62,694 nt of DNA from Myxococcota bacterium (GCA_046734815.1 JBKPRZ010000272.1:1-62694), one strand, 5' to 3'. Positions 40,704 to 56,457 are shown, counted from the stretch's first letter. Notes: generated by a model not told the origin, from the sequence alone. A program made the numbers and translations.

Positions 40704-41910
40704 ACCGCTGGATCTCCAGGGCCAGCTGCCGGGCCGCCCCCCGGAACATCCGCGGCTCGCGCGCCAGGGCCACCCGCACGAACCGATTGCCCAGGTTGCG
40801 CTGGTTCCAGAAAAAGTAGGTGCCTGGCAACACGTACACGTCGCGGGCCAGCAGCTTGCGGTGGAAGTCCATCGAGTCGACCCCCAGCGCCGAGATGTCC
40901 AGCCAGGCGACGCTCACGTTGATGCGCGGCTCGCAGTCGCGCACCGGCGTGTCGGCCAGGGCCAGCGCCAGCTCGCGGCGGTTGGTGCTGAGCACGTTGC
41001 GCACCGATTCGAAGTCGTCGGCCTCCGAGTCACGCAGGTAGCGGGTGAGCATGTTCAGGGTGAAGGGCGAGACGTTCAGCAGGACGCTGGTCTGGATGTC
41101 GTAGATGGCCGGGTAGATGTCGCGGCTGCTCATCAGGATGGCGCACTTGGCGTCCTGCAGGGGCCAGACCTTCCCGGTATCCTCGATGACGATGTAAGAG
41201 ACGCCCGACGACTCGAGCAGGTCGTAGATGTCGAACCACTTGGCCCGCCCGTCCATCAGCGCGAACGAGGCGAAGCAGCGGTCGATGATCAGCAGCTTGC
41301 CGTGATCGACGCAGAACCGGACCACCTCCTCGAAGGCCGGGCGCCCATCGGTCAGCAAGGTGAAGCCGGTGGGGTTGTTGGGATCCACCAGGAAGAGCGC
41401 ATCGGTGGTCACGCGCCGGCAGAGGTTGTCGTAGATCTGGTCGAGGTCGGCCAGGTCCTCCTCGGGGATCGCGTTGAGGGGGATTTGCTGGTTGCGCAAC
41501 AGATCGTGGAGGTTGTCGAAGCACGGCTCGATCAGCGAGACCGACATCTTCCGCTGCATCAGGAAGGTGGCGGCGACCATGGTCGAGATGGAGGACGCGT
41601 AGGCCAGCAGCGCCCGGCCGGTCTGCAGCGCGGTCGGCTGCCGCTGCAGCTCGAAGAAGGCGGTGATGAAGTCCTGCTCGAGGTCGCGCTGCAGACGCTC
41701 CTCCGATTCGTACCAGAGCTGCGGCAGGCTCTCGACGATCTGACGCTGCGTGGGCGACTGACGCTGGTGGGTGTGCGCGTCGGCGAGGTTGAAGCGCCGG
41801 GTGAGCGCGTGGATCTCGTGCTGGGTGATGTCCGTCAGCCGGTCGGCGAGAGGGTTGCGGGCGACGGGAGCGGGGCGGCGGCGGGCGACGGCCGGGGATG
41901 TCGAGATCAT
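40693..41910 (-). CDS. PLP-dependent aminotransferase (fold type I, class I/II-like)
   Basis: ATG 41910 gives MISTSPAVARRRP and is preceded by GGAGG. Fold-type-I blocks are LFLVDPNNPTGF, LLIIDRCFASF and a putative PLP-Lys context IVIEDTGKVWPLQDAK. The C-terminus is RFVRVALARE. Confidence 0.7.
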   Translation of the reverse strand: MISTSPAVARRRPAPVARNPLADRLTDITQHEIHALTRRFNLADAHTHQRQSPTQRQIVESLPQLWYESEERLQRDLEQDFITAFFELQRQPTALQTGRALLAYASSISTMVAATFLMQRKMSVSLIEPCFDNLHDLLRNQQIPLNAIPEEDLADLDQIYDNLCRRVTTDALFLVDPNNPTGFTLLTDGRPAFEEVVRFCVDHGKLLIIDRCFASFALMDGRAKWFDIYDLLESSGVSYIVIEDTGKVWPLQDAKCAILMSSRDIYPAIYDIQTSVLLNVSPFTLNMLTRYLRDSEADDFESVRNVLSTNRRELALALADTPVRDCEPRINVSVAWLDISALGVDSMDFHRKLLARDVYVLPGTYFFWNQRNLGNRFVRVALAREPRMFRGAARQLALEIQRYGQ

Positions 41911-42374: not shown

Positions 42375-44108
42375 GTGAAGCACTTTAAGTCGATGGCTCC
42401 GTGCACATCGGCTTCTTCCCCGAGCGAGGGCCGTTCCAGCCGGGGTTTCCACTGGCTGGTCGTCACTCTGGCGCTGGCAGGGTGTGTGGGGAGCGTGGGC
42501 AGCTCAGGGGGCCCGGACCCAGGGGCGCCGGCGCCGGGTGGAAACGCCCCGCCGGGAATGGCCGACCCGCAGAGGCAGGCGCCTGCCCCGGGGTCGGTCA
42601 CCGCGGGCGTGGCGCCGATGAGACGCCTCAGCGTCGAGCAATACCGGAATACCGTGCGGGACCTGCTGGGCGTCGAGGTGCCGGTGCTGTCGCTGCCCGG
42701 AGACGAGGTCATCGACGACCGGTACTTCAGCAACGTCGGGAACCCACTCAAGAGCGTCGATCTCGACCGCTACGTGGATGCTGCCGAGCTTCTGGCCAAG
42801 GCGGCGGTAGCAAGGCTGGCCGGACTGGTGAGCTGCGACCCGAACGCGGTCGGCGCGGCCGTCTGCGCGCATACCTTCATCGAACGGTTCGGTCGCCGCG
42901 CCTACCGGCGGCCGCTCTCGCCCGAGGAGGTGGCCAGGCTAGAGATGGTGTTCGCGGCGGCGGGGGGCGCATTCAGCGACGGGATCGAAGCGGTGGTGGC
43001 GGCGCTGCTGCAGTCGCCGAAGTTCCTGTACCTGGTGGAGCCGGTGCCGGCCCAGGCGGCCGGGAAGGTGGTGCCGGTGGATCCGTGGGCCCTGGCCTCC
43101 CGGCTGTCCTATTTCCTGCTCGGCACCATGCCCGACGACGCCCTGCTGGATGCCGCCGGCCGCGGGGACCTGGCCACCCCGGCGGCGGTCGCCCAGCAGG
43201 CGATGCGGCTGTCGAAGGATCCCCGATTCCGGGCCAACGTGGCCAGCTTCCACGACCAGTGGCTGCTGCTGCGCGAGCTGGGCGGCGCCGACAAGGACCC
43301 GATGTTGTTCCCGGACTGGGGCCCCGAGCTCAAATCCGCCCTGGCCGAGGAGAGCCGGCGGTTCGTCGAGCAGGTCATGAGCGAGGAGGATGGACGGGTC
43401 GAGACCCTGCTGTCGGCGTCGTTCTCCATGCTCAACGGGCCGCTGTACGACTTCTACGGTGTCCCGAAACCGGCCGGCGCCTCGGCCGCCACCTGGCAGA
43501 AGGCGGCCCTGGATCCGCAACAGCGGGCGGGCATCGCCACCCAGGCCAGCCTGCTCGCCGCGCAGGCGCACGCCAACCAGACCTCGTACATCCTGCGCGG
43601 CAAGCTGGTGCGCGAGTCGCTGTTCTGCACGCCCATCCCCCCGCCCCCTCCCGAAGCGGCGAACGTGGAAAGCTCCCTGCCCCCCACCGCCAGCGCACGC
43701 GACCGGGCCGCCGCCCACCGGATCAGGCCCGAATGCGCCACCTGCCACGAGCTGTTCGATCCCATCGGCTTCGCCTTCGAGAACTACGACGCCACCGGGC
43801 GCTACCGGGTTAGGGAGGCGGGCGGTCAGCCGATCGATGCCGCCATCCAGGTGACCGGCACGCGCGACCTGGACGGTCCAGTGGCCAATGCGGTCGAGCT
43901 GCTGCACAAGATCTCCACCGCCGCCGAGGTGCGCGACTGCATCGCCCGGCAATGGATGCGGTTCGCGCTGGGGCGGGTCGAGAGCGACGACGACGCCCCC
44001 TCGCTGGCGGAGGCGCGCCGGGCCCTGCGGGAGGGCGGGCGCATCCAGGACCTCGTGGCGGCGCTGACCCGCTCGGATTCCTTCCGCTACCAGCGGGTCA
44101 GCCCCTGA
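42375..44108 (+). CDS. DUF1592/DUF1588/DUF1585-type lipoprotein, paralogue of 30512-32179, without an adjacent DUF1552 partner
   Basis: The lipobox lies in HWLVVTLALAGC. Family blocks are LSVEQYRNTVRDLLG, RFGRRAYRRPLSPEE, LLQSPKFLYLVE, DQWLLL, TSYILRGK and CATCHELFDPIGFAFENYDATGRYR. The start is GTG 42375 or ATG 42393. Confidence 0.75.
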   Translation: MKHFKSMAPCTSASSPSEGRSSRGFHWLVVTLALAGCVGSVGSSGGPDPGAPAPGGNAPPGMADPQRQAPAPGSVTAGVAPMRRLSVEQYRNTVRDLLGVEVPVLSLPGDEVIDDRYFSNVGNPLKSVDLDRYVDAAELLAKAAVARLAGLVSCDPNAVGAAVCAHTFIERFGRRAYRRPLSPEEVARLEMVFAAAGGAFSDGIEAVVAALLQSPKFLYLVEPVPAQAAGKVVPVDPWALASRLSYFLLGTMPDDALLDAAGRGDLATPAAVAQQAMRLSKDPRFRANVASFHDQWLLLRELGGADKDPMLFPDWGPELKSALAEESRRFVEQVMSEEDGRVETLLSASFSMLNGPLYDFYGVPKPAGASAATWQKAALDPQQRAGIATQASLLAAQAHANQTSYILRGKLVRESLFCTPIPPPPPEAANVESSLPPTASARDRAAAHRIRPECATCHELFDPIGFAFENYDATGRYRVREAGGQPIDAAIQVTGTRDLDGPVANAVELLHKISTAAEVRDCIARQWMRFALGRVESDDDAPSLAEARRALREGGRIQDLVAALTRSDSFRYQRVSP

Positions 44109-44123: not shown

Positions 44124-45020
44124 TCAGGCGGTGACCAGGGTGCCGGCGCCCTTCTCGGTGAACAGCTCGACCACCACGCTGTGGGGGGCGCGGCCATCCA
44201 CCACGTGCACCGCCTCGACCCCACCGGCCAGCGCGCGCAGGATGGCGTTGGCCTTGACCTGCATGCCGCCCTTGACCGCGCGGCCCTCCTGCAGCCTGCC
44301 ACTCAGGTCGGCGGCGCGCAGCTCGCTGAGGAGCTTGCCGTCCTCGTCCAGGATCCCGGGCACGTCGGTCAGGAAGATCAGCTTGCGCGCCCGGATCGCC
44401 ACCGCGATCTCGGCGGCGGCCACGTCCGCGTTGATGTTGTAGGTGGTGCCGTCCAGCCCCGCGCCGATGGGTGACACCACCGGGATGTAGGCCTTGTCCA
44501 GGCACATGTCGAGCACCTCCGGGTGGACGCTCTCGACGTCGCCCACCAGCCCCAGGTCCGGTTTGCCCGGCCGGGGCGCCTGCTTGCGGGCCTGCAGCAG
44601 ACGTCCGTCCTTGCCCGACAGCCCCATGGCCGAGCCGCCCAGGGTCTGGATCAGCCCGACGATCTCGCTGTTGACCCGGCCGGTGAGGACCATCTCCACC
44701 ACCTGCATCTCGTCGGGCCCGGTCACGCGCTGCCCGTCGACGAACTGGCTCTTCTGGCCCAGCCGTTCCAGGGTGCGGTTGATCTCGGGGCCACCGCCGT
44801 GGACCACCACCGGCAGCAACCCGGCCGCCCGCAGCAGCACCACGTCCTGGGCGAAGGCGCGCTTCAAGGCCGGATCGACCATGGCCGCGCCGCCGTACTT
44901 GATCACCGCGCGCGTGCCGGAGAATCGCTGGATGTACTTGAGCGCGGCCACGACCAGCTCGCGCTGGTTGGCCAGGCTCTCGCCCGATGGATGGGGGCTG
45001 GCGGCGTTCGGATCGCTCAT
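44124..45020 (-). CDS. argB: Acetylglutamate kinase
   Basis: The 298-aa protein has RAVIKYGGAAM, VVVHGGGPEI, FVDGQRVT and NINADVAAAEIA, which are classical ArgB blocks. Its ATG overlaps the argC stop (ATGA at 45017-45020). Confidence 0.9.
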   Translation of the reverse strand: MSDPNAASPHPSGESLANQRELVVAALKYIQRFSGTRAVIKYGGAAMVDPALKRAFAQDVVLLRAAGLLPVVVHGGGPEINRTLERLGQKSQFVDGQRVTGPDEMQVVEMVLTGRVNSEIVGLIQTLGGSAMGLSGKDGRLLQARKQAPRPGKPDLGLVGDVESVHPEVLDMCLDKAYIPVVSPIGAGLDGTTYNINADVAAAEIAVAIRARKLIFLTDVPGILDEDGKLLSELRAADLSGRLQEGRAVKGGMQVKANAILRALAGGVEAVHVVDGRAPHSVVVELFTEKGAGTLVTA

Positions 45021-46090
45021 GGCAGGTGGCCCACCAGGTCGGCCAGGCCGTCGGTTTCGGGAAAGCCGAACATCAAGTTGGCGTTCTGCACCGCCTGGCC
45101 GGCGGCCCCCTTGACCAGGTTGTCCAGGGAGGCGCAGACGATGGCCACGTTCCGCTCGGCGTCCGCGCGCGCGCCCAGCACCACCCGGTTGGTGCCCACG
45201 GTGGAGGCCAGGGTCACCGCCTCGGCGTCGGCCACGCGCAGGAACGGCCGCCCCTCGGCAAAGGTGGCCAGCGCCCGGGTCACCGCCGCGCCGGGGTCGC
45301 CGGCCGCCGTGGCGGCCGGGGTCAGGCGCCCGTACACGGTGGCCAGGATCCCGCGGCGAGCCGGCAGCAGGTGGGGCGTGAACACCAGCCGGACGCCCGG
45401 GACACCGCCCAGGGCGAGGATGCGCTCGATCTCGGGCGTGTGCTGGTGGCGCAAGATCCGGTACGCGCGGATGTCGCCGTCCACCTCGGAGAAGGAGTAT
45501 TCATCAGTCGCCCGGCGGCCGGCGCCCGTGGTGCCGCTCTTGGCGTCGATGATGATGGAGGTGGGGTCCACCAGCCCGGCCCGCAGCAGGGGCAGGACCG
45601 CCAGCGCGCTGACGGTGGCGTAGCAGCCGGGGTTCGAGACCAGCCGCGCCGCCGGCAGGCGCTCGGCGGTTCCCGTCGCCTCGGGCAACGAATAGACCGC
45701 CTGGGCCAGCAGGCCAGGATCGGGATGGGCAAAGCCGTACCAGCGCGGATAATCAGCCGCGGGCAGCCGGAAGGCGCCCGATATATCGACCACCCGGGCG
45801 CCGGCGGCCAGCGCCAGCGGCGCCAGCTCGCAGGACGCCTCGGCGGGTGTGGCGAGAAAGACCAGCGACAGCTCGCCGAACGCCTTCTTGCCGTCCGCCT
45901 GCGACAGGCAGGCCACGTCGGCGGCGGGTCCGGGCAGCGCCAGGCGGGCGCCCAGCTTGCTGCCGGCCCATTTGTCCGACGTCGCCTGGACCAGGCGGAA
46001 ATGCGGGTGACGGGCGAGGATGCGCGCTAGCTCGATCCCGGAGTACCCGGACACGCCGACGATCCCCACCCGGGGGGAACCGGAACTCAT
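45017..46090 (-). CDS. argC: N-acetyl-gamma-glutamyl-phosphate reductase
   Basis: The 357-aa protein has RVGIVGVSGYSGIELARIL, an active-site context SNPGCYAT, and LDNLVKGAAGQAVQNANLMFG. It starts 9 nt after the P450 stop. Confidence 0.9.
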   Translation of the reverse strand: MSSGSPRVGIVGVSGYSGIELARILARHPHFRLVQATSDKWAGSKLGARLALPGPAADVACLSQADGKKAFGELSLVFLATPAEASCELAPLALAAGARVVDISGAFRLPAADYPRWYGFAHPDPGLLAQAVYSLPEATGTAERLPAARLVSNPGCYATVSALAVLPLLRAGLVDPTSIIIDAKSGTTGAGRRATDEYSFSEVDGDIRAYRILRHQHTPEIERILALGGVPGVRLVFTPHLLPARRGILATVYGRLTPAATAAGDPGAAVTRALATFAEGRPFLRVADAEAVTLASTVGTNRVVLGARADAERNVAIVCASLDNLVKGAAGQAVQNANLMFGFPETDGLADLVGHLP

Positions 46091-46099
46091 GGGCGGGAA

Positions 46100-47515
46100 C
46101 TATGGCGACGATCCCGCCGCTGCACAAGGCCGAGCCGCCGCCGCATCCCGACGCCGCACACGCATGGGCAGGTCGTCGCGCGGGCGCAGGGTGATGGCGG
46201 GCTGCAGGCGCAGCTGGTAGCCGGGGCGCGGCGCGAGCTCCACCTGCTGCAGCAGCACGGCGAGGATGATCACCGCCTCCATCATGGCAAAGTGCGCTCC
46301 GGCGCAGACGCGCGAACCGCCGCCGAACGGCAGGTAGACGTGCCGGGGCAGGCGGTCCTCCAGGCCGTCCAGCCAGCGCTCGGGGTTGAACGCCTCGGGA
46401 TCGTCGAAGTAGCGCGGGTTGCGGTGGCTCGCCCAGGGGGTGATCAGCACCTGCTGGCCGCGCCGGATGTTCCAGCGCGAAACCACCAGGTCCGTCAGCG
46501 CCTCGCGCCCGAAGGCCCAGACCGGCGGACGCAGGCGGAGGGTCTCCTTGACCACCGCGGTCAGGAAGGGCAGCCGGCGGACGTCCTCGGCGCCGGGGCG
46601 TCGGCCCTGCAGAGCAGTCTGCAGCTCCTGGCGAGCGCGGTCCGCCGCGGCCGGATGCTGGCTGAGAAACCAGAGCGCGAAACAGAGCGCCATGGCCGTG
46701 GTCTCGTGGCCGGCGAGCATGATGGTCACCACCTCGTCGCGCAGGTGCGCATCGCTCATCGGCTGCCCGTCCTCGTCGCGCGCACTCAGGAGCCGCCCCA
46801 GCAGGTCATCCCGATCGGCGCCGGCATCGGCACCGTCCTGCCGGCGGCGCTGCTCGATGATGGTGGTGACCACCCGGTCCAGCCGCGCCGCCGCCTGGCG
46901 CAGGCGCCGCCGCACCGGCAGCGGCCAGGACCGGGGCACCAGCCGCCGCCAGGTGAACACCAGCTGCGCAAAGGCGGCCAGCGCCTGGTCCAGCGCGTGC
47001 GCCACCTCGCGGGCAGCCGACTCGACGTCGGTGCCGAACAGGGTCTCGGCCACCACCCCCAGGGTCAGCTTCATCATCGCCGGCCGCACCGCCACCTCGC
47101 TGCCGTCGGCCAGCGAGCCCGCCAGCCGCTCGGTGGCGCGGGCCATGGCAACGGCATAGGCGGCGATCTGCTTGCGTTGCAGCGGCGGCGCCACCAGCTG
47201 CCGCTGACGCCGCCAGTGCTCGCCGTGGCTCGTCAGCAGCCCCTCGCCCAGCACCACGTCCAGCGCGCGGGTGGTCCAGTCCTTGGAAAATCGGTGTTCC
47301 CGGTCCAGCAACACCTCGCCCACGCCCTCGGGATCGCTGAGGTAGACGAACGACGCGCCGATGCCCGGCAACTCGCCGGCCCCCGGGTAGCGGGCGGTGA
47401 ACCGCTCGATGAAGCCCAGCGGGTCGCGCGCGAAGGTGATGAAGGCCAGCAGGCCCTGCAGGCCGGGCGCGCGCGGCGGCGGCCCCGGCTGGCTCGCTTG
47501 CACCGCTTCGCTCAT
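46100..47515 (-). CDS. Cytochrome P450
   Basis: ATG 47515 gives MSEAVQAS and overlaps the upstream stop (ATGA). The I-helix is IMLAGHETTA, the K-helix is ETLRLRPP, and the haem-thiolate loop is FGGGSRVCAGAHFA. The product is 471 aa. Confidence 0.9.
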   Translation of the reverse strand: MSEAVQASQPGPPPRAPGLQGLLAFITFARDPLGFIERFTARYPGAGELPGIGASFVYLSDPEGVGEVLLDREHRFSKDWTTRALDVVLGEGLLTSHGEHWRRQRQLVAPPLQRKQIAAYAVAMARATERLAGSLADGSEVAVRPAMMKLTLGVVAETLFGTDVESAAREVAHALDQALAAFAQLVFTWRRLVPRSWPLPVRRRLRQAAARLDRVVTTIIEQRRRQDGADAGADRDDLLGRLLSARDEDGQPMSDAHLRDEVVTIMLAGHETTAMALCFALWFLSQHPAAADRARQELQTALQGRRPGAEDVRRLPFLTAVVKETLRLRPPVWAFGREALTDLVVSRWNIRRGQQVLITPWASHRNPRYFDDPEAFNPERWLDGLEDRLPRHVYLPFGGGSRVCAGAHFAMMEAVIILAVLLQQVELAPRPGYQLRLQPAITLRPRDDLPMRVRRRDAAAARPCAAAGSSP

Positions 47516-49158
47516 AGCCGTTTCAGGAACTCCATCACCGCCTCCCGCTCGCTTTCCAGCATATGCGCGAACGGCTCGACGTGCCCGCCGTTGTGCTGCC
47601 CGGGGCGGCCGGTGTCGTACACGTCGGGCAACATCCAGGGGCGGTATCCCTCCGGGTAGCGGTACACCCCATCGGCTCCGACCTCGCCCGCCACGCCCAG
47701 CCGCCGCCAGTCCAGGCGGTGCCCGCCCACCTGGAACCGTGTGGGCCGCGCCTCGGGATGCATGAGGTGCCACAGCGTCGGAACCGAGCCGTTGTGCAGG
47801 TAAGGCGCCGTGGCCCACACCGCGCTCAGCGGGGTGGCGACGTAGCCGTGGCTGGCCCGCGCCTCCAGCAGCGGCCCCAGCGCGGTCTCCTGGAAGGCGC
47901 CGTTGACCCCCTCGCCCACCGCCTGGGCGCGCGCGGGGTCGGTCCCGATCACCTCGACCGGAACCACCCGGTTGGGGAACTCGACCAGCCGGAACCGCCC
48001 GTCGACGTCGCGGGCATACCGCCCGTGGCAGCCCTCGCAGTGGCAGGCGTACACCTCCTCGCCCTGCCGGGCGCGGGCCTCGTCCAGCGGACCGGGAAAC
48101 GGCGGCGGCCGGTAACGATCGACCAGATGTTGCAGCACCTCGCGCACGGGACCGACGTTCTTCGTGGCCGCCACCTGGAAAGGCACGCCCAGCGTTCCCA
48201 CGGTCACCACCGCGGCCACGCCGGCCATGGAGGACAGCGCTCGTCCCTGCAGCGGGCGCTGCAGCGGCCCGTCGTGCGCCCAGCCGGGCGGCGCGTAGAC
48301 GGCATCGGTCAGCAGCGCGGTCTTGAAACGGAGGGCCCCGAAATCCGGCACGCCCACGAACGCCACCTCGCCCTCGGCCCGGCGATCCAGCGGCAGCACG
48401 CCCAGGTACATCTTCATCGTGGCCACGCCGTTGGTCAGACCCGGCGAGCCATTGGAATACGGGGTGAAGCCGCCGATCCGTTCCAGGGTCGGCAGGCGGC
48501 GGGCGAGCTCGGGCAGGTAGCGCCGGCGGATGGTGTCCAGCTCCGCGGCGCTCACCTGCGGGAACACCGCCGGGATGGCCGCCAGCAACTGCTCGGGCGC
48601 GCGCGCGGCTGCCCGGAACGCGGTGAACACCTCGTCGGCGTAGCGGCCCAGATCGATGGAAGTGGAGGGCAGTCCGATCCAGGCCTCGAGGGTGGGAAAA
48701 CCGTCCGCGTCGTAGGTGGTCCCGGCGTGGCAGGTGGCGCAGCCGGTGTTCACCACCTCCATCTGCAGGCGCGGCCAGCGGTTCTCGATCGTGCCCCCCA
48801 CCAGCCCCAGCGGACGGCGCAGGGCCGGCGGCGGGTCGGCCGCCGGCCAGTTGGCGATCCGCCGCGGCACCAGGAACCCGTAACGTGTGGACAGCAGCTG
48901 TCCCCCCGCGCGCTCGCTCAGCTCGGTCGCGGGGTCGCGCTCGCGCTGCTGCAGCAGCAGGGCGGTGATCAGCACCTTCCAGGGCACGGCGCTACGGCTC
49001 AGGGTCTCGGTGGTCAGTCCGTGGAAGTCGTCGAACATCAGGCGGACCAGCCCCCGGTCCGCCGCCTCGCCCGCCTCCGGCAGCGCCGGCGCGCGCGCCT
49101 CCAGCACCGGCGCGCAACCGGCGACCGCGGCCAGCAGCAGCCACACCAGCCGGCTCAT
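47512..49158 (-). CDS. Di-haem cytochrome c lipoprotein (cytochrome-c-peroxidase/MauG-like superfamily)
   Basis: ATG 49158 gives MSRLVWLLLAAVAGC with a lipobox and overlaps the upstream stop (ATGA). There are two CxxCH motifs (CATCH and CEGCH). The distal block APYLHNGSVPTLWHL resembles the APY(F/L)H(D/N)GS block of di-haem peroxidase-like enzymes. Confidence 0.75.
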   Translation of the reverse strand: MSRLVWLLLAAVAGCAPVLEARAPALPEAGEAADRGLVRLMFDDFHGLTTETLSRSAVPWKVLITALLLQQRERDPATELSERAGGQLLSTRYGFLVPRRIANWPAADPPPALRRPLGLVGGTIENRWPRLQMEVVNTGCATCHAGTTYDADGFPTLEAWIGLPSTSIDLGRYADEVFTAFRAAARAPEQLLAAIPAVFPQVSAAELDTIRRRYLPELARRLPTLERIGGFTPYSNGSPGLTNGVATMKMYLGVLPLDRRAEGEVAFVGVPDFGALRFKTALLTDAVYAPPGWAHDGPLQRPLQGRALSSMAGVAAVVTVGTLGVPFQVAATKNVGPVREVLQHLVDRYRPPPFPGPLDEARARQGEEVYACHCEGCHGRYARDVDGRFRLVEFPNRVVPVEVIGTDPARAQAVGEGVNGAFQETALGPLLEARASHGYVATPLSAVWATAPYLHNGSVPTLWHLMHPEARPTRFQVGGHRLDWRRLGVAGEVGADGVYRYPEGYRPWMLPDVYDTGRPGQHNGGHVEPFAHMLESEREAVMEFLKRL

Positions 49159-50048
49159 CGCCGTCCTCCGCCGCCCACCAGCCGCCGCAGGAACCGGCGC
49201 ACCAGGAACCCGCGCGCCGCCGCGACCAGCGTCCCGCGGGTCCGCTCGGCGCGGCCGGTCCAGGGATTCCAGAACAGCCCCTCGGGCCCGGGGCCGCCGG
49301 GCCGCCCCAGCAGCTCGCGGATGGCCTCGTACGCCATCAGGCAGCCGGTGATCCAGACCATCGGCGCGAAGGAGATGCGCGGCCGCGCGCCGCTGACCAT
49401 CTCCCCGGCGACGGCCAGGTCCACGTGCGCGGCGGTGCTCGAATGGGTCAGCACCCACTCGAGCTCCCTCTGCTTGCACCCCGCCAGCACCTCCTCGCTC
49501 AGCTGATCGATCTCGCGCCCCACGCTGGGGTAGCCCAGCCGTTCCTCGGGGCGGGGGTCGCCTGGCCGCACCACGCAGACGTTGGGCAGGGTGGAGGCGA
49601 AGGCGTCGACCACCGTGCGCCCGACCCGCCGCCCCTCGCGCATCAGCCGCAGGGTGGCGCGCACGTCGTCGCAGCCGTTGATGGCCACGTCGGCGGCGCT
49701 CAGCAAGATGGGCAGCTGCTCGGTCCATTCGCCGCCCAGCACGTCCACCCGGCAGTCCGGGTTGACGCGCTGGAGCTGCTCGCGCGTGACCGCCGTCTTC
49801 TCCTGCCCGAGAACGTCCAGGTTGGCGAAGATCTGGCGGTTGAGGTTCGACAGCTCGAACCGGTCGATGTCGGCGATGGTCAGCCGGCCCACCCCGGCCC
49901 GGGCCAGGCAGGCCACCGCCACGCCGCCCATCCCGCCCACGCCGGCCACGAACACGTGGCCCGCGCGCAGGCGCCGCTGCTCCTGTGCCGAAACGAATCC
50001 CAGGTTCCGCTGGGTGAAGCCCTCGTAAGAAAATGCGTCCGCGGTCAC
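49155..50048 (-). CDS. ThiF/MoeB/HesA-family E1-like adenylyltransferase
   Basis: GTG 50048 overlaps the upstream stop (GTGA). The sequence runs GFVSAQEQRRLRAGHVFVAGVGGMGGVAVACLARAGVGRLTIADIDRFELSNLNRQ, giving the nucleotide-binding G-x-G-x-x-G followed by D..D...SNLNRQ. At 297 aa it shows no ThiS/MoaD-like fusion, no CxxC pairs and no obvious peptide-clamp domain. Confidence 0.75.
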   Translation of the reverse strand: MTADAFSYEGFTQRNLGFVSAQEQRRLRAGHVFVAGVGGMGGVAVACLARAGVGRLTIADIDRFELSNLNRQIFANLDVLGQEKTAVTREQLQRVNPDCRVDVLGGEWTEQLPILLSAADVAINGCDDVRATLRLMREGRRVGRTVVDAFASTLPNVCVVRPGDPRPEERLGYPSVGREIDQLSEEVLAGCKQRELEWVLTHSSTAAHVDLAVAGEMVSGARPRISFAPMVWITGCLMAYEAIRELLGRPGGPGPEGLFWNPWTGRAERTRGTLVAAARGFLVRRFLRRLVGGGGRR

Positions 50049-51016
50049 GGTGTGCCCTCGTTGGTCCTCTCTGCCCCGCTCTCTCGCAAACCCGGTGCCG
50101 GAATCAGCCAGCGCACCACCGGCACCACCAGACTGAAGAGCAGCAGCAGCAGCGCCTGGAACAGCAGGCGGCCGGCCAGCCCGGGTGGGCCCTTGCGCCG
50201 CAAGAACCTCCACGACGAGGCCAGGGTCCAGGTGCCCAGCTGCAGGAAGTCGTCGCCCCGCGCGTAGTCCAGCGCGCGCTGGCAGCAGCCGTTCACCGCC
50301 GGATCGCGGTGCTTGGGCGCCTGCTCGAAGCTCTTCTTCAGCTCGTCCGAGCCGCCGGTGTAGGCGTCGGTGATGATCTGCCGGGCCTCGTCGAACCCCG
50401 CTTCCTCGGCCACCCCGAAGGCGGTGCGGTGGACCTTCATGATCGCCCGGGCGCGCAGCAGGTGACCGAACGTCTGACGCGCGCCCGGCCGGTGGCTGGG
50501 GTACACGTCGTCGTAGCCCTCGGCCACCAGCCCGAACACCGCCGGCACCTGGGTCACGTTCGAGATCCAGACCGGCCGCATGCCGCTGCGGAAGAACAGC
50601 AGGAAGTTGGCCAGCCCGTACAGCAGCTGCGACAGCCCCCGGCTGCGGTGATCGCGGTGCACGTAGGCCAGCCCCAGGTGGGCCACCCGCTCGAACCGGG
50701 GCAGCTCCAGGTAGCGCAGGGCCGAAAACGCGATCGGTTCGCCGGTCGAGCGTCGGTAAACCAGGGTGACCACCCGGTGGGCCAGCTCCTCGCGATCGCC
50801 GGTCAGCGCGCCGTACAGGGGGACCGGCTTGCCGTCCTGGCCGGCCGCCGCCACCGCGCGCAGCTCGGCGGTCAGCTGCGCGAGCGCGGCGTCGTGCAGC
50901 CAGCGGCCGGGCCGCTCGAGCACCGCCACGTCCAGATCGCCGCCCAGGGGCAGCCGCAGCGCCAGCCGCTCGGCTCCCAGCAGCGACGACCCCAGCGAGC
51001 GCAGCCCCCTCAGCAT
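50045..51016 (-). CDS. Hypothetical protein, possible GNAT-fold acyltransferase with a C-terminal TM helix
   Basis: ATG 51016 gives MLRGLRSLGS and overlaps the upstream gene by 7 nt. A GNAT motif-A-like segment is HLGLAYVHRDHRSRGLSQLLYGLANF. The C-terminal hydrophobic helix is LLFQALLLLLFSLVVPVVRWLI. The fold assignment is tentative. Confidence 0.5.
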   Translation of the reverse strand: MLRGLRSLGSSLLGAERLALRLPLGGDLDVAVLERPGRWLHDAALAQLTAELRAVAAAGQDGKPVPLYGALTGDREELAHRVVTLVYRRSTGEPIAFSALRYLELPRFERVAHLGLAYVHRDHRSRGLSQLLYGLANFLLFFRSGMRPVWISNVTQVPAVFGLVAEGYDDVYPSHRPGARQTFGHLLRARAIMKVHRTAFGVAEEAGFDEARQIITDAYTGGSDELKKSFEQAPKHRDPAVNGCCQRALDYARGDDFLQLGTWTLASSWRFLRRKGPPGLAGRLLFQALLLLLFSLVVPVVRWLIPAPGLRESGAERTNEGTP

Positions 51017-52239
51017 GCCACCGCCTCGGGCGCGCTCCGGCGCGCGTGCAGCACCCGGGACAGCTCGGCGATCGGGTACAGCGCCTGACGGAGGGCGCCG
51101 CGGTCGAGGAAGCCGTCCACCGCCACCGTCATCACGGCACCCGCCGAGAGCGGCACCAGGAAATCGCAGCGCTGCTGCTCCAGGAGGTCCAGCACCTGCT
51201 CGGCGGCCAGGCTGGGCGCGGTCGACCCGCGGGCCAGACGCGCCAGCAGGGCGGCGCGATCCGCGGGGCCGGGGTGGGCCAGGAAGTGGCGGTCCATCTG
51301 GTCGTATCCGCCGGCGGCCAGCTCCGCCGCGGTCAGCACCTTCACCTCGCGCAGCTCCGGCCAGCCGCGAAGGTTCTCGACGTAGCGTTCGAAGTCGTCG
51401 GTGCGCAGGCGGGCCAGGCGGCCCAGCAGCGCATCGGCCCGCCGCAGCTCGTTCTGGGTGACCGCCACCCGGATGGGGTCCAGCACCAGGAACGCGATCA
51501 CCGGCAGGACGCTGGCCCACACGGCCAGATCCGCGGGCGCCCCCTCGACCAGCGCCGCCAGCGCGCGGGCCAGCAGCAGCGATGCCGCGGCGAACAGGGC
51601 CAGCCGTCCGAGCATGCCGCGTACGCGCCACAGCCCGCCCGCGTGGAACGAGCAGGCCGCCACGTAGGTGACCAGCAGCAGCCCCGCCGCCCCCAGCCGG
51701 GGCCACCGCCCGCCCAGCGCGTCCCGGTTCTCGCTGACCACCGCCACCAGCGCCGCCGCTCCCAGTGCGCTCATCGCCACCAGGGTGCTGCGACCGGGGC
51801 CCTGCCGGCGGGCCGCCGCCGTGGCCACCAGCGCCGCGAACACCCAGACCAGCGCCGCCAGCTGATAGCCCATCATGGCAAGCATCCACCCGCGGGCCTG
51901 CGACCAGGCCCCCGCCCAGGTGATCCCGAAAAAACCGGTGGCCAGCAGCGCGAGCACCTTCAGAACCAGCGGCACGCGCCGCCCGGTGACCGCTTCGGCG
52001 TACAGCAGGGCGCCCAGCGGGAACAGCCCGAAACCCAGATATTGCAGATGCCGCGACCAGGCCGCGGCGGTCAGCGCCTGGTGCCCGCGACAGCCGAACC
52101 CGACCGCCAGGAACAGCAGCAGCGCGGCCAGCCGCCGCTGGACCCGCCCCGGCTCGCAGCGGACCACCACCGCGGCGACATACAGCAACGCCCCGGCCGC
52201 CGCGGCCAGGTCCAGCAGGGTCTCGAGCCGGGCGCTCAT
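51010..52239 (-). CDS. Polytopic membrane protein (about 8 TM) with a soluble C-terminal domain, unknown function
   Basis: ATG 52239 gives MSARLETLLDLAAAAGALLYVAAVVV and overlaps the upstream stop (ATGA). Successive hydrophobic segments are followed by a region of about 130 residues beginning QNELRRADALLGRLARLRTDDFERYVENL. Confidence 0.6.
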   Translation of the reverse strand: MSARLETLLDLAAAAGALLYVAAVVVRCEPGRVQRRLAALLLFLAVGFGCRGHQALTAAAWSRHLQYLGFGLFPLGALLYAEAVTGRRVPLVLKVLALLATGFFGITWAGAWSQARGWMLAMMGYQLAALVWVFAALVATAAARRQGPGRSTLVAMSALGAAALVAVVSENRDALGGRWPRLGAAGLLLVTYVAACSFHAGGLWRVRGMLGRLALFAAASLLLARALAALVEGAPADLAVWASVLPVIAFLVLDPIRVAVTQNELRRADALLGRLARLRTDDFERYVENLRGWPELREVKVLTAAELAAGGYDQMDRHFLAHPGPADRAALLARLARGSTAPSLAAEQVLDLLEQQRCDFLVPLSAGAVMTVAVDGFLDRGALRQALYPIAELSRVLHARRSAPEAVAC

Positions 52240-53393
52240 GACCGGGCGCTGTCCTCCAGCGAGCGTCGAAAAAGGTGCAGCCGCTGATACGGCCGGGCGC
52301 CCATCTTCTCCGCCTGCCGCAGGCTGGCCCGGTTGGCGTCGGCGATCCAGGTGCCGCCCACGTGGGTGTAGCCGCCGCGGGCCAGCCCGGAAACCAGCTG
52401 GGCCATCATCAGACCGTTGACCCCGCGGTTCTGGTATTCGGGATCGACCGCGTAATAGATGAGCGAGGCGCGGCGGCAGGCGCGCCGGTAGCGCAGGTAC
52501 TTCCACAGCGCGCCCAGACCCAGCCGCGATCCGGTCTCGCGCAGGAATGGGTTCAGGTCCGGCACGCAGACGATGGCCCCCACCGGGCGCAACCCGTCGT
52601 AGGCCAGCACCGTGATGCGCGGGTCGACGATCCACATGAGGTCCTTGGCGTAAAATAGGAATTCCGTCTCGGTCATCGGCACGAACAGCGGGTTGGGATC
52701 GAAGGCCCGGTTCAGAAGCTCGCGGCACTCGGCCAGCTGCCGCCGCAGGCTGCGCCGGCGCACCGGCTCGACCCGCAGGCCGGTGGCGGCCAGGGTCCGC
52801 TGCTTGTCACCCAGCGCCCGCGTGGCGGCCTGGGGCTGCACCTCGAACTCGAAGGTGGTCATGGGGAAGAACGGCTGGTAGCCCAGCCCCGCCAGCAGCC
52901 GCGGCAGGTGCGGCGGGCTGTAGCTCTGCTCGATGTACGGCGCCAGCGCATGGCCCTCGGTCACCACCCCGACCGCATGGTTGCCGGTGAGGTTGTAGTT
53001 GCCTGCGATCTCGCGCGCGCCGTTCCGCCGTCCGAACGCCTCGGCCGCGCCCAGCAGCAGCGCCGCCGCCCGCGCGTCGTCCGCACAGTCGAAGAATCCG
53101 AACTGGCTGCGCGCGGTCCCGTGGCGCTGGTTCGAGGCGCGGTGTACATGGGCCACGATCCGGCCGATCGGGCGGCCGTGCTTGGAGACCGAGAAGAAGG
53201 TCAGGTCGTCGGGTCGGTTGAAGGTCGGGTGCTGCGCCGGATCCAGGAACCGTTTCAGGTCCGATCGCAGCGGCGATACGTAAGCGCTGTCGCGCCCGTA
53301 CGCCTCGAACGGCGCCTCGAAGAAGCTGTCGAAGTCTCGCTCGCGTAGCTGGTATGCCGGATCTGCGGGGGGGTGGGCGGCGGTGGTTGACAT
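52236..53393 (-). CDS. Large GNAT-superfamily N-acyltransferase-like protein (385 aa)
   Basis: ATG 53393 gives MSTTAAHPPADPAYQLRERDFDSF. The layout matches a widespread uncharacterised two-lobed GNAT-like family: VSPLRSDLKRFLDP..HPTF, GRIVAHVH...FGFFDCADD, NYNLTGNHAVGVVTEG, and the C-terminal YAVDPEYQNRGVNGLMMAQL (motif-A-like). Confidence 0.6.
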   Translation of the reverse strand: MSTTAAHPPADPAYQLRERDFDSFFEAPFEAYGRDSAYVSPLRSDLKRFLDPAQHPTFNRPDDLTFFSVSKHGRPIGRIVAHVHRASNQRHGTARSQFGFFDCADDARAAALLLGAAEAFGRRNGAREIAGNYNLTGNHAVGVVTEGHALAPYIEQSYSPPHLPRLLAGLGYQPFFPMTTFEFEVQPQAATRALGDKQRTLAATGLRVEPVRRRSLRRQLAECRELLNRAFDPNPLFVPMTETEFLFYAKDLMWIVDPRITVLAYDGLRPVGAIVCVPDLNPFLRETGSRLGLGALWKYLRYRRACRRASLIYYAVDPEYQNRGVNGLMMAQLVSGLARGGYTHVGGTWIADANRASLRQAEKMGARPYQRLHLFRRSLEDSARS

Positions 53394-53535
53394 GGAGATG
53401 ACGGCGCTCCGGTGGGTGTGTTCTGTCCCCCATCCAATCGCAACCGACGTGCCAGGGGACACGGCCGCCGTTGCGCGGGTCCGCAGCGCGCTGTCGGGTC
53501 GGCCTTCCGACGCCTGTGACGAACCGCTGACAGCC

Positions 53536-54729
53536 GTGTGGCGTCGTGACCGGGCGGCCGGGTATTCTGCGGCCGCCTTGCCGTCCGCCGTCATCCTCGC
53601 CATCCTGCTGCTGGCGGACGCTCCCGTGACAGCGTTGGCGCCACGCACATCGCCCGCGGACGCCGACGGAAACGCCGACGCCAACGCCAACGCCGTCCCC
53701 GATGCCGGCTCGGCCACCCCGCCGGTTCTGCGCCGCCGCCCCCTCGCCGTGGCCGCCGCGCTGGTCCCGGGGCTGCTGCTGCACGGAAGCGGCCACTTCG
53801 TCGGCGGCGATCGCCGGACCGCAGGCCGGCTGCTGGCCGCCGAGGGCGTGGGCCTGGCCGCGGTTGTCGCCGGTCTGGGCGGCCTGGCCGTGACCGGCGC
53901 CGCCCGCCGGCTGGTCACGCCGCTGGTGCTGCTGACCAACGTCGGCGCCGGCCTGTTCCTGAGCTCCGCCGCCGCCGACCTCTACGGCACCCTCAGGCCG
54001 CCCGGGCCTCCCGGTCAGCCCGCCCCGTTACCCACCGTGGAGGCCAGCGCCGGCGCTCTGTTCGTCCACAACCCCGTGCTGCAGCCACGCTGGCTCGCCT
54101 CGGCGGGCGCCGACCTGTGGCTGTGGCGGTGGCGGCTGTCCCCCGTCGTGCACAGCGCGGCCGACGCCGACACCGTGCGCGCCGAGCTGCGCGCGGCCTA
54201 TCGGCTGTGGGGACCACGTCCCGACGCCCCTTCCCCCCGCGGAGACTTCCTCGAGCTCGGGGCAGGCGTCGTCCACCACCGCGACTCGCAGGACATCACC
54301 CCCTTCGACATCACGACCGGCGAGCTGACCCTGAGCGGCCGGCACGAGCTGCAAACCTTCGCCCCCACCCTGGCCGGCGCCTTCCTGGACTTCAGCGCCG
54401 GCATGGCCTACGGCACCACCCACTTCGGCGGCCGCGCCGACACCTTCGAACCGACCGATCTCCTGCTCGCCCGATTCGGCTTCGGCTTCTGGCTGGGCCG
54501 CGGGCCAGCGCCGCAGGCGGAGGTGAGCCTGGACTACGACAACCGCCACGACGATTTTGCCGGCGGCCTGAAGCTCACCGGCCTCGGCAGCGGACCCGCC
54601 GGGCACTTCGGCGTGCGGGCGCGCTTTTACCCCCACCCGCGCTGGGGCGTGGGCGCGCTGGCCCAGGCTGGCTCGGCGCATGTCCTGGGTCTGCAGCTCC
54701 TCTATCGCCCCGCCGAGGCGCCGCGGTGA
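53536..54729 (+). CDS. Secreted hypothetical protein (possibly beta-rich, outer-membrane-like C-terminal half)
   Basis: GTG 53536 gives MWRRDRAAGYSAAALPSAVILAILLLADAPVTALA, a Sec-like signal. Starts further upstream would collide with the divergent gene start at 53393. The C-terminal half shows alternating-hydrophobic stretches (FGFGFWLG, EVSLDYDN, GVGALAQAG). I recognised no family. Confidence 0.5.
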   Translation: MWRRDRAAGYSAAALPSAVILAILLLADAPVTALAPRTSPADADGNADANANAVPDAGSATPPVLRRRPLAVAAALVPGLLLHGSGHFVGGDRRTAGRLLAAEGVGLAAVVAGLGGLAVTGAARRLVTPLVLLTNVGAGLFLSSAAADLYGTLRPPGPPGQPAPLPTVEASAGALFVHNPVLQPRWLASAGADLWLWRWRLSPVVHSAADADTVRAELRAAYRLWGPRPDAPSPRGDFLELGAGVVHHRDSQDITPFDITTGELTLSGRHELQTFAPTLAGAFLDFSAGMAYGTTHFGGRADTFEPTDLLLARFGFGFWLGRGPAPQAEVSLDYDNRHDDFAGGLKLTGLGSGPAGHFGVRARFYPHPRWGVGALAQAGSAHVLGLQLLYRPAEAPR

Positions 54730-55832
54730 TGGTCGGGCCTCCGTTGCAGCTGACGGCGTTGATCGGCCTCGGCCTGCTGCCGCTGGCAAGCTGCCTGGAC
54801 GCCGCCGATGACCGCGCCCGCCGCGACGAGCAGGCGGGTCAGGCCAGCGCCGGCGGCGTGACAGTCACCGTGGACGACGGCCTGGCCGCCGTGCGCGCGC
54901 TCGACGGCGCGGCGCTGCTCCTCTGGGCCCAGGCGCCCGAGCTGTCAATCGCGCTCGACCGCGCTGGCGCCTCCGCCCCCTTCGACATCACCGTCGAGAA
55001 CGCCCTGGCCGACGCCGAGCTGCGCCTGGAGGACGGCACCGCCGTGCCGCCACGAGCCGCCGAGGCCAGCGACCCGCCGACCTCGAAGCGCTGGCGTCTG
55101 GACGTGCTCACCCGCGCCCGCCTGCAGCTGCGCGCCCCCGATCGGGACAGCCGCGAGGCGTTTCGCTTCGCCGCGTACGCCGACGTGCAGGAGGCCCTGC
55201 CCCGCGTCCAGGACATCTACCGGCGGATGGCCACCGACCCACGCATCCGCTTCGCGGTCATGAACGGCGATCTGACCGACATGGGGAGCATCGCAAGTCT
55301 GCAGCAGTTCCAGCGCGAGATGCGCACCCTGCCCTTCCCGGTCTACGCCACCCTGGGCAACCACGAGCTCGGCGCCTCGGATGTACCGTTCCACCGGCTG
55401 TTCGGCCGGGGCAGCTCCAGCTTCACCTTCCGCTCCGCCCGCTTCACCCGGCTCGACTCGGCCAGCGCCACCCTGGCGCCGGCGGTGCACGGCTGGCTCG
55501 ACGACTGGCTGCGCGCCGGCGCCTCCTCCTTCCACGTGGTGACGATGCACATCCCCCCGGTCGACCCCATCGGCACGCGCAACGGTAGCTTCGCCAGCCG
55601 CCTGGAGGCGGACCAGCTGCTCGGTCGGCTGGCAGCCTTCGGGGTCGACCTGACCCTGTACGGCCACATCCACTCCTTCTACAGCTTCGCCAACGCCGGC
55701 ATTCCCGCCTACATCAGCGGCGGCGGGGGCGCCATCCCGGAACGCCTCGACGGCATCGGCCGCCACTTTCTCACCATCGACGTCGACCCCGTCAGCCAGC
55801 GCTACCAGGTCGCGATCGTCCGCGTGGACTGA
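54729..55832 (+). CDS. Calcineurin-like metallophosphoesterase lipoprotein
   Basis: The ATG shares one nucleotide with the upstream stop (TGATG). The N-terminus MVGPPLQLTALIGLGLLPLASC carries a lipobox. The metallophosphoesterase motifs are YADVQ, NGDLTD, GNHE, MHIPP and GHIHSF. Confidence 0.75.
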   Translation: MVGPPLQLTALIGLGLLPLASCLDAADDRARRDEQAGQASAGGVTVTVDDGLAAVRALDGAALLLWAQAPELSIALDRAGASAPFDITVENALADAELRLEDGTAVPPRAAEASDPPTSKRWRLDVLTRARLQLRAPDRDSREAFRFAAYADVQEALPRVQDIYRRMATDPRIRFAVMNGDLTDMGSIASLQQFQREMRTLPFPVYATLGNHELGASDVPFHRLFGRGSSSFTFRSARFTRLDSASATLAPAVHGWLDDWLRAGASSFHVVTMHIPPVDPIGTRNGSFASRLEADQLLGRLAAFGVDLTLYGHIHSFYSFANAGIPAYISGGGGAIPERLDGIGRHFLTIDVDPVSQRYQVAIVRVD

Positions 55833-55839: not shown

Positions 55840-56289
55840 CTACCCGGTGTGGCCGAACCCGCCGCCGCCCCGCTCGGTGCCCGACAGCTCCTCCGCCTCC
55901 ACCAGCTCGGCCCGCGTGACCGGCGCAATAACCAGCTGGGCCACCCGATCGCCGGGCGCAATGGTGTGCGCCTGCTGCCCCAGGTTCACCAGCAGCACCA
56001 CCACCTCGCCCCGATAATCCGCATCGATGGTCCCCGGCGCGTTCACCACCGTCACCCCGGTCTTCGAGGCCAGCCCCGACCGCGGCCGCACCTGCCCCTC
56101 GTACCCCGCAGGCAGCTCGATGGCCAGCCCGGTAGGCACCCCCACCCGCTCCCCCGGCCTCAAAGTCATTGCCCCATCCGCCGCCGAAGCCAGATCCAGC
56201 CCCGCCGCCCCCGCGGTCATGTACCGAGGAATCACCGCCCCCGCCCGCAAGCGCTTGAACCGGACCGTGACCGCCGCAGTCATCGCCAA
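55840..56289 (-). CDS. dut: dUTP diphosphatase
   Basis: The 149-aa protein has [23 protein letters not shown] and the C-terminal [10 protein letters not shown]. All five dUTPase motifs are recognisable. Confidence 0.9.
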
Positions 56290-56318
56290 AAGCTCTGAAC
56301 CTTCAAAGGAAGCGCTCC

Positions 56319-56457
56319 ACTTTCTGCGTTCGTAGCCGGGCTTGCCCGGCGGAGAGACGCGCCCTTTTCCACCGCCATGTCCCCTGGCCCTGTCCCTTCT
56401 GCTCCGGGGAGAGGGCTCGGGGGAGGGGGCGCGGGTCTGCCCGCGCCCTCTTCCCCG
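56319..56457. repeat. Copy B of the ~140-bp dispersed structured intergenic element
   Basis: It has the same left and right modules as 458-598, and the 55-nt right module at 56402-56456 is identical. The element occupies the pnp-dut spacer and abuts the pnp stop at 56458. Confidence 0.9.

Follow-up and report, generated by a model that had tools for sequence, protein, structure and literature searches.

We analyzed a 62,694-nt stretch of DNA from a Myxococcota bacterium (GCA_046734815.1, JBKPRZ010000272.1:1-62694; the whole stretch is called the window here) and followed up a preliminary description of a chain of eight minus-strand genes at 44124-53393. In 5' to 3' order the chain encodes a tandem GNAT (g1), a membrane protein (g2), a tail-anchored GNAT (g3), a ThiF/E1-like enzyme (g4), a di-haem lipoprotein (g5), a cytochrome P450 (g6), ArgC and ArgB. 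With modest confidence, we read g1 to g6 as the Myxococcota version of a widespread cluster that would build and tailor a membrane-associated N-acyl amino acid. The cluster appears to be related to the acyl-oxazolone pathways, and its product is most likely an oxidised fatty-acyl amino-acid lipid. The preliminary description could not assign the gene mix to any pathway it could name; we found that the mix matches the acyl-oxazolone type of synthesis, if only as a divergent variant (PMC10404671, PMC12856293). The description's speculation about an amino-acid lipid that is N-acylated and tailored by oxidation agrees with the nearest chemistry that has been characterised. The gene order given above corrects the earlier one, while Pfam, NCBIfam and hydropathy agreed with the products that had been guessed (GNATs, a protein of eight transmembrane (TM) segments with a soluble tail, ThiF, a di-haem lipoprotein, a P450, ArgC and ArgB). 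What the analysis shows, and what this reading starts from, is the identity of the genes, the folds of their products, how the genes are conserved, and a kinship with fusions of ThiF with a flavin oxidase (FDO).

Acyl-oxazolones and N-acyl-dehydro-amino acids were first recognised between 2021 and 2025. Acyl-oxazolone synthesis has been described for OxzAB of Pseudoalteromonas rubra (bioRxiv 10.1101/2020.06.11.147165), for TyzACB (Rv2336-Rv2338c) of Mycobacterium tuberculosis (PMC10404671) and for TrzAS (Rv1356c/Rv1355c) of the same organism (PMC12856293). According to all three sources, an aromatic amino acid is first N-acylated by an N-acyltransferase, a ThiF homolog then cyclises the N-acyl product with ATP to the oxazolone, and desaturation with O2 is carried out by an FDO that belongs to the nitroreductase superfamily (bioRxiv 10.1101/2020.06.11.147165, PMC10404671, PMC12856293). 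The authors of PMC12856293 take a ThiF gene with an FDO and an acyltransferase as neighbours to be the pathway's signature, and state that with TrzS variants the saturated oxazolone arises without the oxidase. The same three genes also mark N-acyl-dehydrotyrosine clusters in Planctomycetota and Gammaproteobacteria (PMC12479983). In most phyla the cluster studied here carries this signature of an acyltransferase, a ThiF-type cyclase and an FDO, and we regard acyl-oxazolone/N-acyl-dehydro-amino-acid synthesis as the closest known system.

The distribution of the cluster was determined with family hidden Markov models (HMMs), since single-linkage clustering of stop-to-stop open reading frames (ORFs) merges frames in high-GC loci. 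The census covered 55 genome loci with at least 6-7 kb on both sides, and gene content was scored within 10 kb. The g3 and g2 genes occurred together at all 55 loci. They were accompanied by ThiF at 21, by g1 at 19 (where g1 clusters with ThiF), by an Acg-type FDO at 18 and by the di-haem gene at 11, and the pair stood alone at 33. An independent metagenome scan starting from the di-haem protein gave 25 orthologous loci, with other cluster genes at 21 of them. Such clusters occur in Myxococcota, in Alpha-, Beta- and Gammaproteobacteria, in Gemmatimonadota and in Acidobacteriota. Outside Myxococcota the genes usually follow the order g3-ThiF-g2-g1-FDO, frequently overlapping by 4 nt, and the di-haem gene lies in convergent orientation. 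Where ThiF is present it adjoins g3 or has only g1 between, in many phyla and gene orders and again often with a 4-nt overlap. A g3 gene was also found at 47 of the 50 loci with a full-length-score ThiF, and the other three (L058, L086 and L097) are contigs cut near ThiF. In a Shinella plasmid example the RefSeq labels read hypothetical, ThiF family, hypothetical, GNAT and hypothetical. Of the single eight-gene system proposed in the preliminary description, the first six genes belong to a recurring cluster, and argC and argB, which are absent from the related loci, do not.

The ThiF domain of g4 begins at residue 13, and no N-terminal peptide-clamp domain precedes it. Among 50 orthologs the adenylation residues (a GxGGxGG loop, D60, D62, an SNxNRQ motif, K84 and D127) were invariant, and neither an invariant cysteine nor an invariant CxxC zinc motif was seen. 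Since the adenylation residues are kept and no cysteine is conserved, the residue pattern fits an enzyme that would adenylate and cyclise its substrate, not a thioester-forming or sulfur-transfer E1. The best NCBIfam model was PRK08223, the ThiF type found in ThiF-FDO fusions. An exhaustive search gave only 43 representatives below 1e-30, and the top 150 matches included the ThiF-FDO fusions P0445, P0502, P0468 and P0477, whose ThiF halves pass the PRK08223 cutoff. g4 aligned with P0502 and P0445 over ~275 aa, its full length, at 30-32% identity. With E. coli ThiF, MoeB and TcdA only ~110 N-terminal residues aligned; matches in the PDB include these three families as well as MccB and PaaA. The link of g4 to the known pathway was drawn through the fusions and the family models. 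P0502 adjoins a methyltransferase and a FeeM-family N-acyl amino acid synthase, and by this gene content it sits in a canonical cluster of the known acyl-oxazolone/N-acyl-dehydro-amino-acid type. The domains fused to relatives of g4 were FDO, lipid acyltransferase, methyltransferase and glycosyltransferase domains, and no E2, JAB or rhodanese domain was among them. One of these fusions, the 528-aa P0402, combines a ThiF domain resembling g4 (267 aa aligned at 33% identity) with a PlsC-type acyltransferase domain (L169:2239-3825 and L170:1615-3201), and in L170 a second PlsC-type gene adjoins it. To our knowledge, the ThiF-lipid acyltransferase architecture has not been described before. We also noted an 833-aa protein, P0361, in which a g4 ortholog (59% identity) is joined to the C-terminal part of a g5-like di-haem protein; since a cytoplasmic ThiF fused to a periplasmic haem protein would be odd, it may be a gene-calling or frameshift artefact at the overlapping junction. 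A literature search returned nothing for PRK08223 or BRADO6155 and no functional information under Rv1355c/moeY. A role in anti-phage defence was considered and dropped, as PADLOC gave just a generic E1-E2 similarity.

The flavin oxidase that accompanies ThiF in other phyla (partner Y) matched the Acg-family flavin mononucleotide oxidoreductase model at 8e-40, which is below that model's cutoff. Y and g4 matched opposite halves of two ThiF-FDO fusion models, PRK07877 (the Rv1355c, or TrzS, family) and PRK14851. In addition to the genome loci counted above, FDO was present in the orthologous clusters L165 and L167, and other high-GC clusters (L165 and L113) carry it.

The constant pair, g3 and g2, was examined by structure prediction, profile comparison and hydropathy. 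The AlphaFold2 (AF2) model of g3 (pLDDT 88) contains a single GNAT core, a conserved insertion and a C-terminal helix at 280-304, within which hydropathy places a strongly hydrophobic TM segment at 283-301. Foldseek matched the model to GNATs of the NatD/RimL type; in Pfam only a weak Acetyltransf_1 match was obtained (E up to 0.1). The loop RSRGLS fits the CoA-binding pattern R/Q-x-x-G-x-G/A/S, which places g3 in the GNAT superfamily. More than 1070 homologs of g3 were found, with ~50% identity even across phyla and with invariant motifs that include WISNVTQVPAV, YTGGSDxLKK and DYxRGDD. In a collection with one genome per species, relatives of g3 occurred in at least 585 genomes, including Myxococcota, Bradyrhizobium, Mesorhizobium, Rhizobium, Yoonia, Cupriavidus, Halomonas, Gemmatimonadota and Thermoanaerobaculia. 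For g2 no Pfam, NCBIfam or PDB match was obtained, and a look-up of the exact sequence returned no entry, probably through a differing gene-start call. A full-length hhalign comparison (probability 99.9%, E 2.7e-35) nevertheless puts it in one family with the membrane protein encoded beside g3 in other phyla, and this family accompanies g3 at every genome locus with enough flank. NCBIfam holds no model for g1, g2 or g3, and neither single-sequence searches of the PDB (g1 and g3) nor profile searches (g1, g2 and g3) gave anything significant. In Hyphomicrobiales the pair lies near pspA-yiaAB (L001, many of L012-L084, and L166; e.g. L001:8743-9781 and L033:5965-10618), upstream and on the same strand in Bradyrhizobium, downstream and on the opposite strand in Mesorhizobium and Rhizobium. 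At 10 loci the pair is also near aas, which encodes an acyl-[ACP]--phospholipid O-acyltransferase. Such neighbours hint that the pair may be connected with membrane stress and the repair of lipids.

The second acyltransferase-like protein, g1, matched Acetyltransf_1 in Pfam at its C-terminal residues 250-365, and Acetyltransf_7 as well (E up to 0.1). Its AF2 model (pLDDT 87) was closest in Foldseek to tandem GNATs, namely glucosamine N-acetyltransferase, MAB_4324, MshD and N-myristoyltransferase (NMT), at a TM-score of ~0.6. With RGVNG as its CoA-binding loop g1 also falls in the GNAT superfamily, and 574 homologs were found at ~50% identity.

The g5 protein scored 73.2 bits against the RoxA-like cytochrome c family PF21419 (cutoff 26.7). 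Its two haem motifs, C140xxC143H144 and C374xxC377H378, were invariant in a 10-sequence alignment and at least 95% conserved in 44 sequences. The N-terminus consists of a signal peptide and a lipobox, VAGC, at residues 12-15, and the closest PDB entry in a profile search was RoxA (4b2n). With two CxxCH sites and a RoxA-like cytochrome-c domain, g5 belongs to the di-haem peroxidase/MauG/RoxA superfamily; at 130 bits it stays below the cutoff of 150 for the subfamily NF040606. The adjoining g6 matched PF00067 with 268 bits (E 1.9e-79), and its haem-thiolate loop FGGGSRVCAG fits FxxGxRxCxG. The four nearest P450 homologs with genomic context (P0243, P0244, P0250 and P0259; 54-57% identity) all lie directly downstream of an orthologous di-haem gene, either overlapping it by 4 nt or separated from it by 7 nt. 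This bears out the earlier placing of the P450 with the di-haem gene, and because of it we regard the P450 as a recurrent accessory of the cluster that coexists with FDO. The clusters of these homologs consist of genes for a GNAT, a 273-283-aa protein with no Pfam match (a polytopic membrane protein in L165), ThiF and a g3-like protein, divergent from genes for FDO, the di-haem protein and the P450; the genes after the P450 (DinB, SLT) are unrelated. In them the membrane protein (282 aa) is not of the g2 family and g3 has no tail helix. The P450 as a substitute for a missing FDO was set aside, as the clusters of its relatives hold both.

Set against L003, L165 and L042, the cluster in the window seems to be a mosaic. 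Its g5 and P450 come nearest to the L165 type, which contains FDO (54-56% identity), and its g3 and g4 to an Archangiaceae metagenome-assembled genome (58-59%). Among the genome loci, g1 is closest to the versions of Alphaproteobacteria and Gemmatimonadota (up to 52%), against 38-43% in Myxococcota loci.

All eight ORFs of the chain are open at the coordinates in Table 1. They are read as coding since their G+C at third codon positions (GC3) is 0.90-0.95 with GC1 above GC2, the pattern expected of a genome with 72% G+C; the chain has a G+C content of 72-74% and the whole window ~70% (0.65-0.74 per 2-kb window). The sequence was read again at every junction. The genes and all seven junctions were exactly as previously described: ATGA at 52236-52239 (g1/g2), the 7-nt overlap ATGCTGA at 51010-51016 (g2/g3), GTGA at 50045-50048 (g3/g4), ATGA at 49155-49158 (g4/g5) and at 47512-47515 (g5/g6), the 9-nt gap TTCCCGCCC at 46091-46099 (g6/argC), and ATGA at 45017-45020 (argC/argB). 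Since start and stop codons overlap at six of the seven junctions, and since the same core genes overlap likewise in orthologous clusters, we take the tight packing as a conserved feature of the operon and not a product of chance. The start codons of g1 to g4 are consistent with the homolog alignments, and Shine-Dalgarno-like GGAG or GAGG motifs lie upstream of g2 to g6. The divergent upstream gene, with a likely start at 53536, was confirmed, and the sole non-coding DNA ahead of the chain is 53394-53535. The gene beyond argB runs convergently, with 15 nt between its stop and that of argB. No sigma-70 consensus match was found in 53394-53535, nor a sigma-70-like promoter match on the minus strand within the chain (such a scan being weak evidence for Myxococcota), and a promoter/terminator scan of the chain gave just weak in-gene hairpins.

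Table 1. Positions in the window of the chain's genes and of the intergenic region upstream of them
Feature	Position	Strand	Support
g1, 385-aa tandem-GNAT acyltransferase, cytoplasmic	52236..53393	-	Pfam, AF2, Foldseek
g2, 409-aa polytopic membrane protein, ~8 TM segments and ~150-aa soluble C-terminal domain	51010..52239	-	hydropathy
g3, 323-aa single-GNAT-fold protein with conserved extension and C-terminal TM helix (tail anchor)	50045..51016	-	AF2, Foldseek, hydropathy
g4, 297-aa ThiF/E1-like adenylating enzyme, putative cyclase acting on a small-molecule carboxylate	49155..50048	-	Pfam ThiF, E 2.7e-32
g5, 548-aa periplasmic di-haem RoxA/MauG-like lipoprotein	47512..49158	-	PF21419, CxxCH motifs, lipobox
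g6, 471-aa cytochrome P450, apparent accessory oxidase coupled to the di-haem gene	46100..47515	-	PF00067
argC, N-acetyl-gamma-glutamyl-phosphate reductase	45017..46090	-	TIGR01850, 323.8 bits (cutoff 233.6); NPGCY motif
argB, N-acetylglutamate kinase	44124..45020	-	TIGR00761, 240 bits (cutoff 151.3); KYGG and GGGP motifs
Divergent intergenic region, putative promoter	53394..53535	.	position only; sole non-coding stretch upstream of the chain

We infer every substrate, the order of the steps and the product in the following scheme. g3, held by its tail at the cytoplasmic face of the inner membrane, would together with g2 N-acylate an amino acid or an amino-lipid head group, the donor being an acyl-CoA or an acyl-acyl carrier protein. 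We place it at the first step since g3 is the gene that most constantly adjoins ThiF. g4 would adenylate the free carboxylate of the N-acyl product with ATP, after which the amide oxygen would close a 5(4H)-oxazolone ring, as with TyzB, TrzS and OxzB, or another nucleophile would capture the activated acyl group. In most phyla an Acg-type flavin oxidase would desaturate the C-alpha-C-beta bond; as there is no Acg-type oxidase in the window, oxidation there would be the task of the P450 in the cytoplasm and, once the product has been exported, of the di-haem lipoprotein g5 in the periplasm. g1 might add or transfer a second acyl group, and argC and argB would be ordinary arginine-biosynthesis genes at the 3' end of the same transcription unit. 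A membrane-lipid role agrees with the presence of aas, pspA-yiaAB and a fatty-acyl AMP ligase gene near the cluster in other taxa.

Several observations weigh against this scheme. The FDO model detected no FDO in the 62.7-kb window, nor in the 10 kb around the cluster at seven Myxococcota loci that share its architecture, so the defining triad is incomplete here. There is no synthase of the FeeM, OxzA or TyzA type: neither g1 nor g3 matched FeeM or Acetyltransf_5 in Pfam (E up to 0.1), and no FeeM or acyl-homoserine lactone synthase structure was among the 50 best Foldseek matches listed for either. g4 scored 109.6 bits against PRK08223, whose cutoff is 266, and the match was confined to its N-terminal half. 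As the pair of g3 and g2 stands alone within 10 kb at the majority of loci (33/55), it must be able to work without ThiF. Finally, the roles given to g1, g2, g5 and the P450 are guesses from location and fold.

A different reading joins all eight genes in one pathway, in which a GNAT would make N-acyl-glutamate, ArgB and ArgC would convert it to a semialdehyde or an ornithine derivative, and the rest would tailor an ornithine or glutamate lipid. The tight junctions continue through argC and argB (the 9-nt gap and the ATGA overlap), both enzymes naturally use an N-acyl amino acid, and the acyltransferase domain fused to a relative of g4 weakly resembles the ornithine-lipid synthase OlsF. Against this, argC and argB were found with the cluster in 0/55 genome loci, 0/25 metagenome di-haem loci and 0/4 contexts of P450 homologs (~85 informative loci). 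Both also score well above the NCBIfam equivalog cutoffs of the standard arginine enzymes with catalytic motifs kept, and the chain lies in a core chromosomal region near dut-pnp-rpsO-truB-rbfA-infB. For these three reasons we consider argC and argB to be probably housekeeping passengers of the transcript, at the 3' end of the unit, and a single eight-gene pathway to be very improbable. The two genes may instead have an unrecognised promoter of their own inside the P450 gene, or they may have a supply role for the cluster. The preliminary description had itself named co-location in other genomes as a test of its proposal; since argC and argB never lie with the other genes of the chain in related loci, a link to ornithine or glutamate is left without comparative support.

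Also improbable, though somewhat less so, is that g4 is a true E1 or an activator of ribosomally synthesized and post-translationally modified peptides (RiPPs), which, in the manner of ThiF, MoeB, MccB and PaaA, would adenylate a protein or a ribosomal peptide at its C-terminus, with the GNATs and oxidases modifying the polymer. g4 is indeed a member of the ThiF/E1 superfamily with all of these among its PDB matches, and MccB-type clusters contain a GNAT too. The start of the ThiF domain at residue 13 leaves no peptide clamp, however, and invariant cysteines and CxxC motifs are lacking in the family. The fusion partners of its relatives are lipid- and small-molecule-type domains such as FDO, lipid acyltransferase, methyltransferase and glycosyltransferase in place of E2, JAB or rhodanese, and the PADLOC similarity is to a generic E1 only. 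A candidate precursor-peptide gene was sought as well, and nothing convincing was found among the short ORFs of 53394-53535. The absence of a ThiS/MoaD-like or peptide gene remarked on earlier is therefore real, as the overlapping junctions leave no space for one. With no beta-grasp or peptide gene in cis, g4 also differs from the E1 enzymes of ubiquitin-like or sulfur-carrier systems (ThiF, MoeB, Cap2). Two unrelated functions could also lie side by side, g3 and g2 forming a self-contained membrane module (for example for N-acylation of head groups or proteins in connection with membrane stress) and ThiF, g1, the di-haem protein and the P450 a separate small-molecule pathway. The many solitary pairs, the company of pspA-yiaAB and aas in Hyphomicrobiales, and the different 282-aa membrane protein and tailless g3 of the P450-type clusters all speak for such a split. 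We nonetheless judge it unlikely, as ThiF always lies beside g3 or is parted from it only by g1, in many phyla and often with a 4-nt overlap, and as the three loci with a full-length-score ThiF but no visible g3 are contigs cut near ThiF. Least credible of all is a redox or detoxification unit, in which g5 would serve as a peroxidase of the periplasm while xenobiotics would be inactivated by the P450 and the GNATs. It would suit the superfamily of g5 and the common use of GNATs and P450s in xenobiotic modification, but it leaves unexplained both the strict linkage with an ATP-dependent ThiF and an Acg-type FDO and the very high conservation of g3 (~50% identity across phyla).

Beyond the N-acyl amino acid cluster that we favour, a bolder proposal can be put forward tentatively. 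g3 and g2, ThiF, the tandem GNAT, FDO and the di-haem lipoprotein, with the P450 in some lineages, would together be an envelope-spanning machine for a new class of membrane lipid: ThiF would ring-close or activate an N-acyl amino acid or aminolipid in the cytoplasm, and after export the periplasmic haem enzyme would oxidatively cross-link or cleave it. We think this rather doubtful. If it held, such a system would exist in hundreds of species of at least four phyla and be linked to membrane-stress genes. If the N-acyl amino acid reading is right, the cluster is a distinct branch that shares its chemistry with the known pathways but tethers its acyltransferases to the membrane and adds a polytopic partner dedicated to it, a di-haem enzyme in the periplasm and, in some cases, a P450. 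Its distribution covers rhizobia, Cupriavidus, marine Rhodobacterales, Gemmatimonadota and Myxococcota. The pathway would then extend to Gram-negative envelopes, with membrane stress (pspA, aas) as a possible role. The analysis suggests a role for five protein families that are now labelled hypothetical or generic (GNAT family, ThiF family). It also offers a caution for operon-based inference, in that the arginine genes are not to be read as part of the pathway.

Elsewhere in the window, the genes next to the chain at 53536-55832 (+) are the divergent neighbours, which encode a 397-aa protein that matches no family and a metallophosphoesterase whose N-terminus has a hydrophobic segment resembling a signal. 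A metallophosphoesterase gene is also found upstream of the Shinella plasmid cluster (L166:4102-5727); no homology between the two metallophosphoesterases was detectable. Beyond them, 55840-62693 (-) holds a block of dut, pnp, rpsO, truB, rbfA and infB, in which rpsO and rbfA were named by size and position only. This core housekeeping block shows that the cluster lies in the conserved chromosome backbone and not in an island. On the other side, a gene at 42393-44108 (+) encodes a DUF1592/1588/1595/1585/1587 protein and one at 32176-33597 (-) a DUF1552 protein. Such proteins are usually encoded as an adjacent pair; here the genes are ~9 kb apart and on opposite strands. Just past the convergent neighbour, genes for a DHDPS-family protein and a class I/II aminotransferase lie in tandem at 39418-41910 (-). 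A molybdopterin oxidoreductase of the nitrate-reductase-like type and a NirB-type nitrite reductase (Pyr_redox_2, BFD, NIR_SIR) follow in series at 17664-24659 (-), which is probably an assimilatory nitrate/nitrite reduction locus. The single ORF at 611-11932 (-), of 3773 aa and GC3 0.95, is full of TPR-type repeats and encodes a giant repeat protein.

We compared the genes of the window with characterised systems. argC and argB pass the same cutoffs and carry the same motifs as the canonical genes, from which they differ just by their position at the 3' end of an unrelated operon. g5 resembles RoxA, MauG and MbnH in its two CxxCH haem sites and RoxA-like cytochrome-c domain, and MauG and MbnH are periplasmic as g5 is; it differs in that only ~40 residues align confidently with RoxA and in being a lipoprotein without an MbnP-like or MauA-like partner. 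Microcin C (the ThiF-like MccB with the GNAT MccE) and other RiPP systems with a ThiF likewise encode a ThiF-family adenylating enzyme together with a GNAT, but the window cluster has no precursor-peptide gene, g4 has no peptide clamp, and the GNATs are unrelated. The NasY/ThiF/nitroreductase clusters for stieleriacines, thalassotalic acids and kyonggic acids (PMC12479983) follow the same three-enzyme logic with tightly overlapping genes, and P0502, the relative of g4, lies in a cluster of this kind with a methyltransferase and a FeeM-family synthase; a NasY/FeeM homolog of g1 or g3 is lacking in that system, as are a membrane protein, a di-haem protein and a P450. From OxzAB, TyzACB and TrzAS the cluster differs in its acyltransferases, which, instead of being of the FeeM/OxzA/TyzA type, comprise one single GNAT with a tail anchor and one tandem GNAT, in the added conserved polytopic membrane protein and periplasmic di-haem lipoprotein, in the P450 of one sub-lineage, and in the lack of an FDO in the window. 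As it has neither a FeeM-type synthase nor an FDO, we do not file the window cluster as a member of the oxazolone pathway as defined. With OxzAB, TyzACB and TrzAS it shares an operon of an N-acyltransferase and a ThiF-like ATP-dependent enzyme, joined by an Acg-like FDO in most orthologous clusters, in which ThiF acts without a protein partner; and g4 and the FDO of those clusters match the two halves of the Rv1355c-family fusion model.

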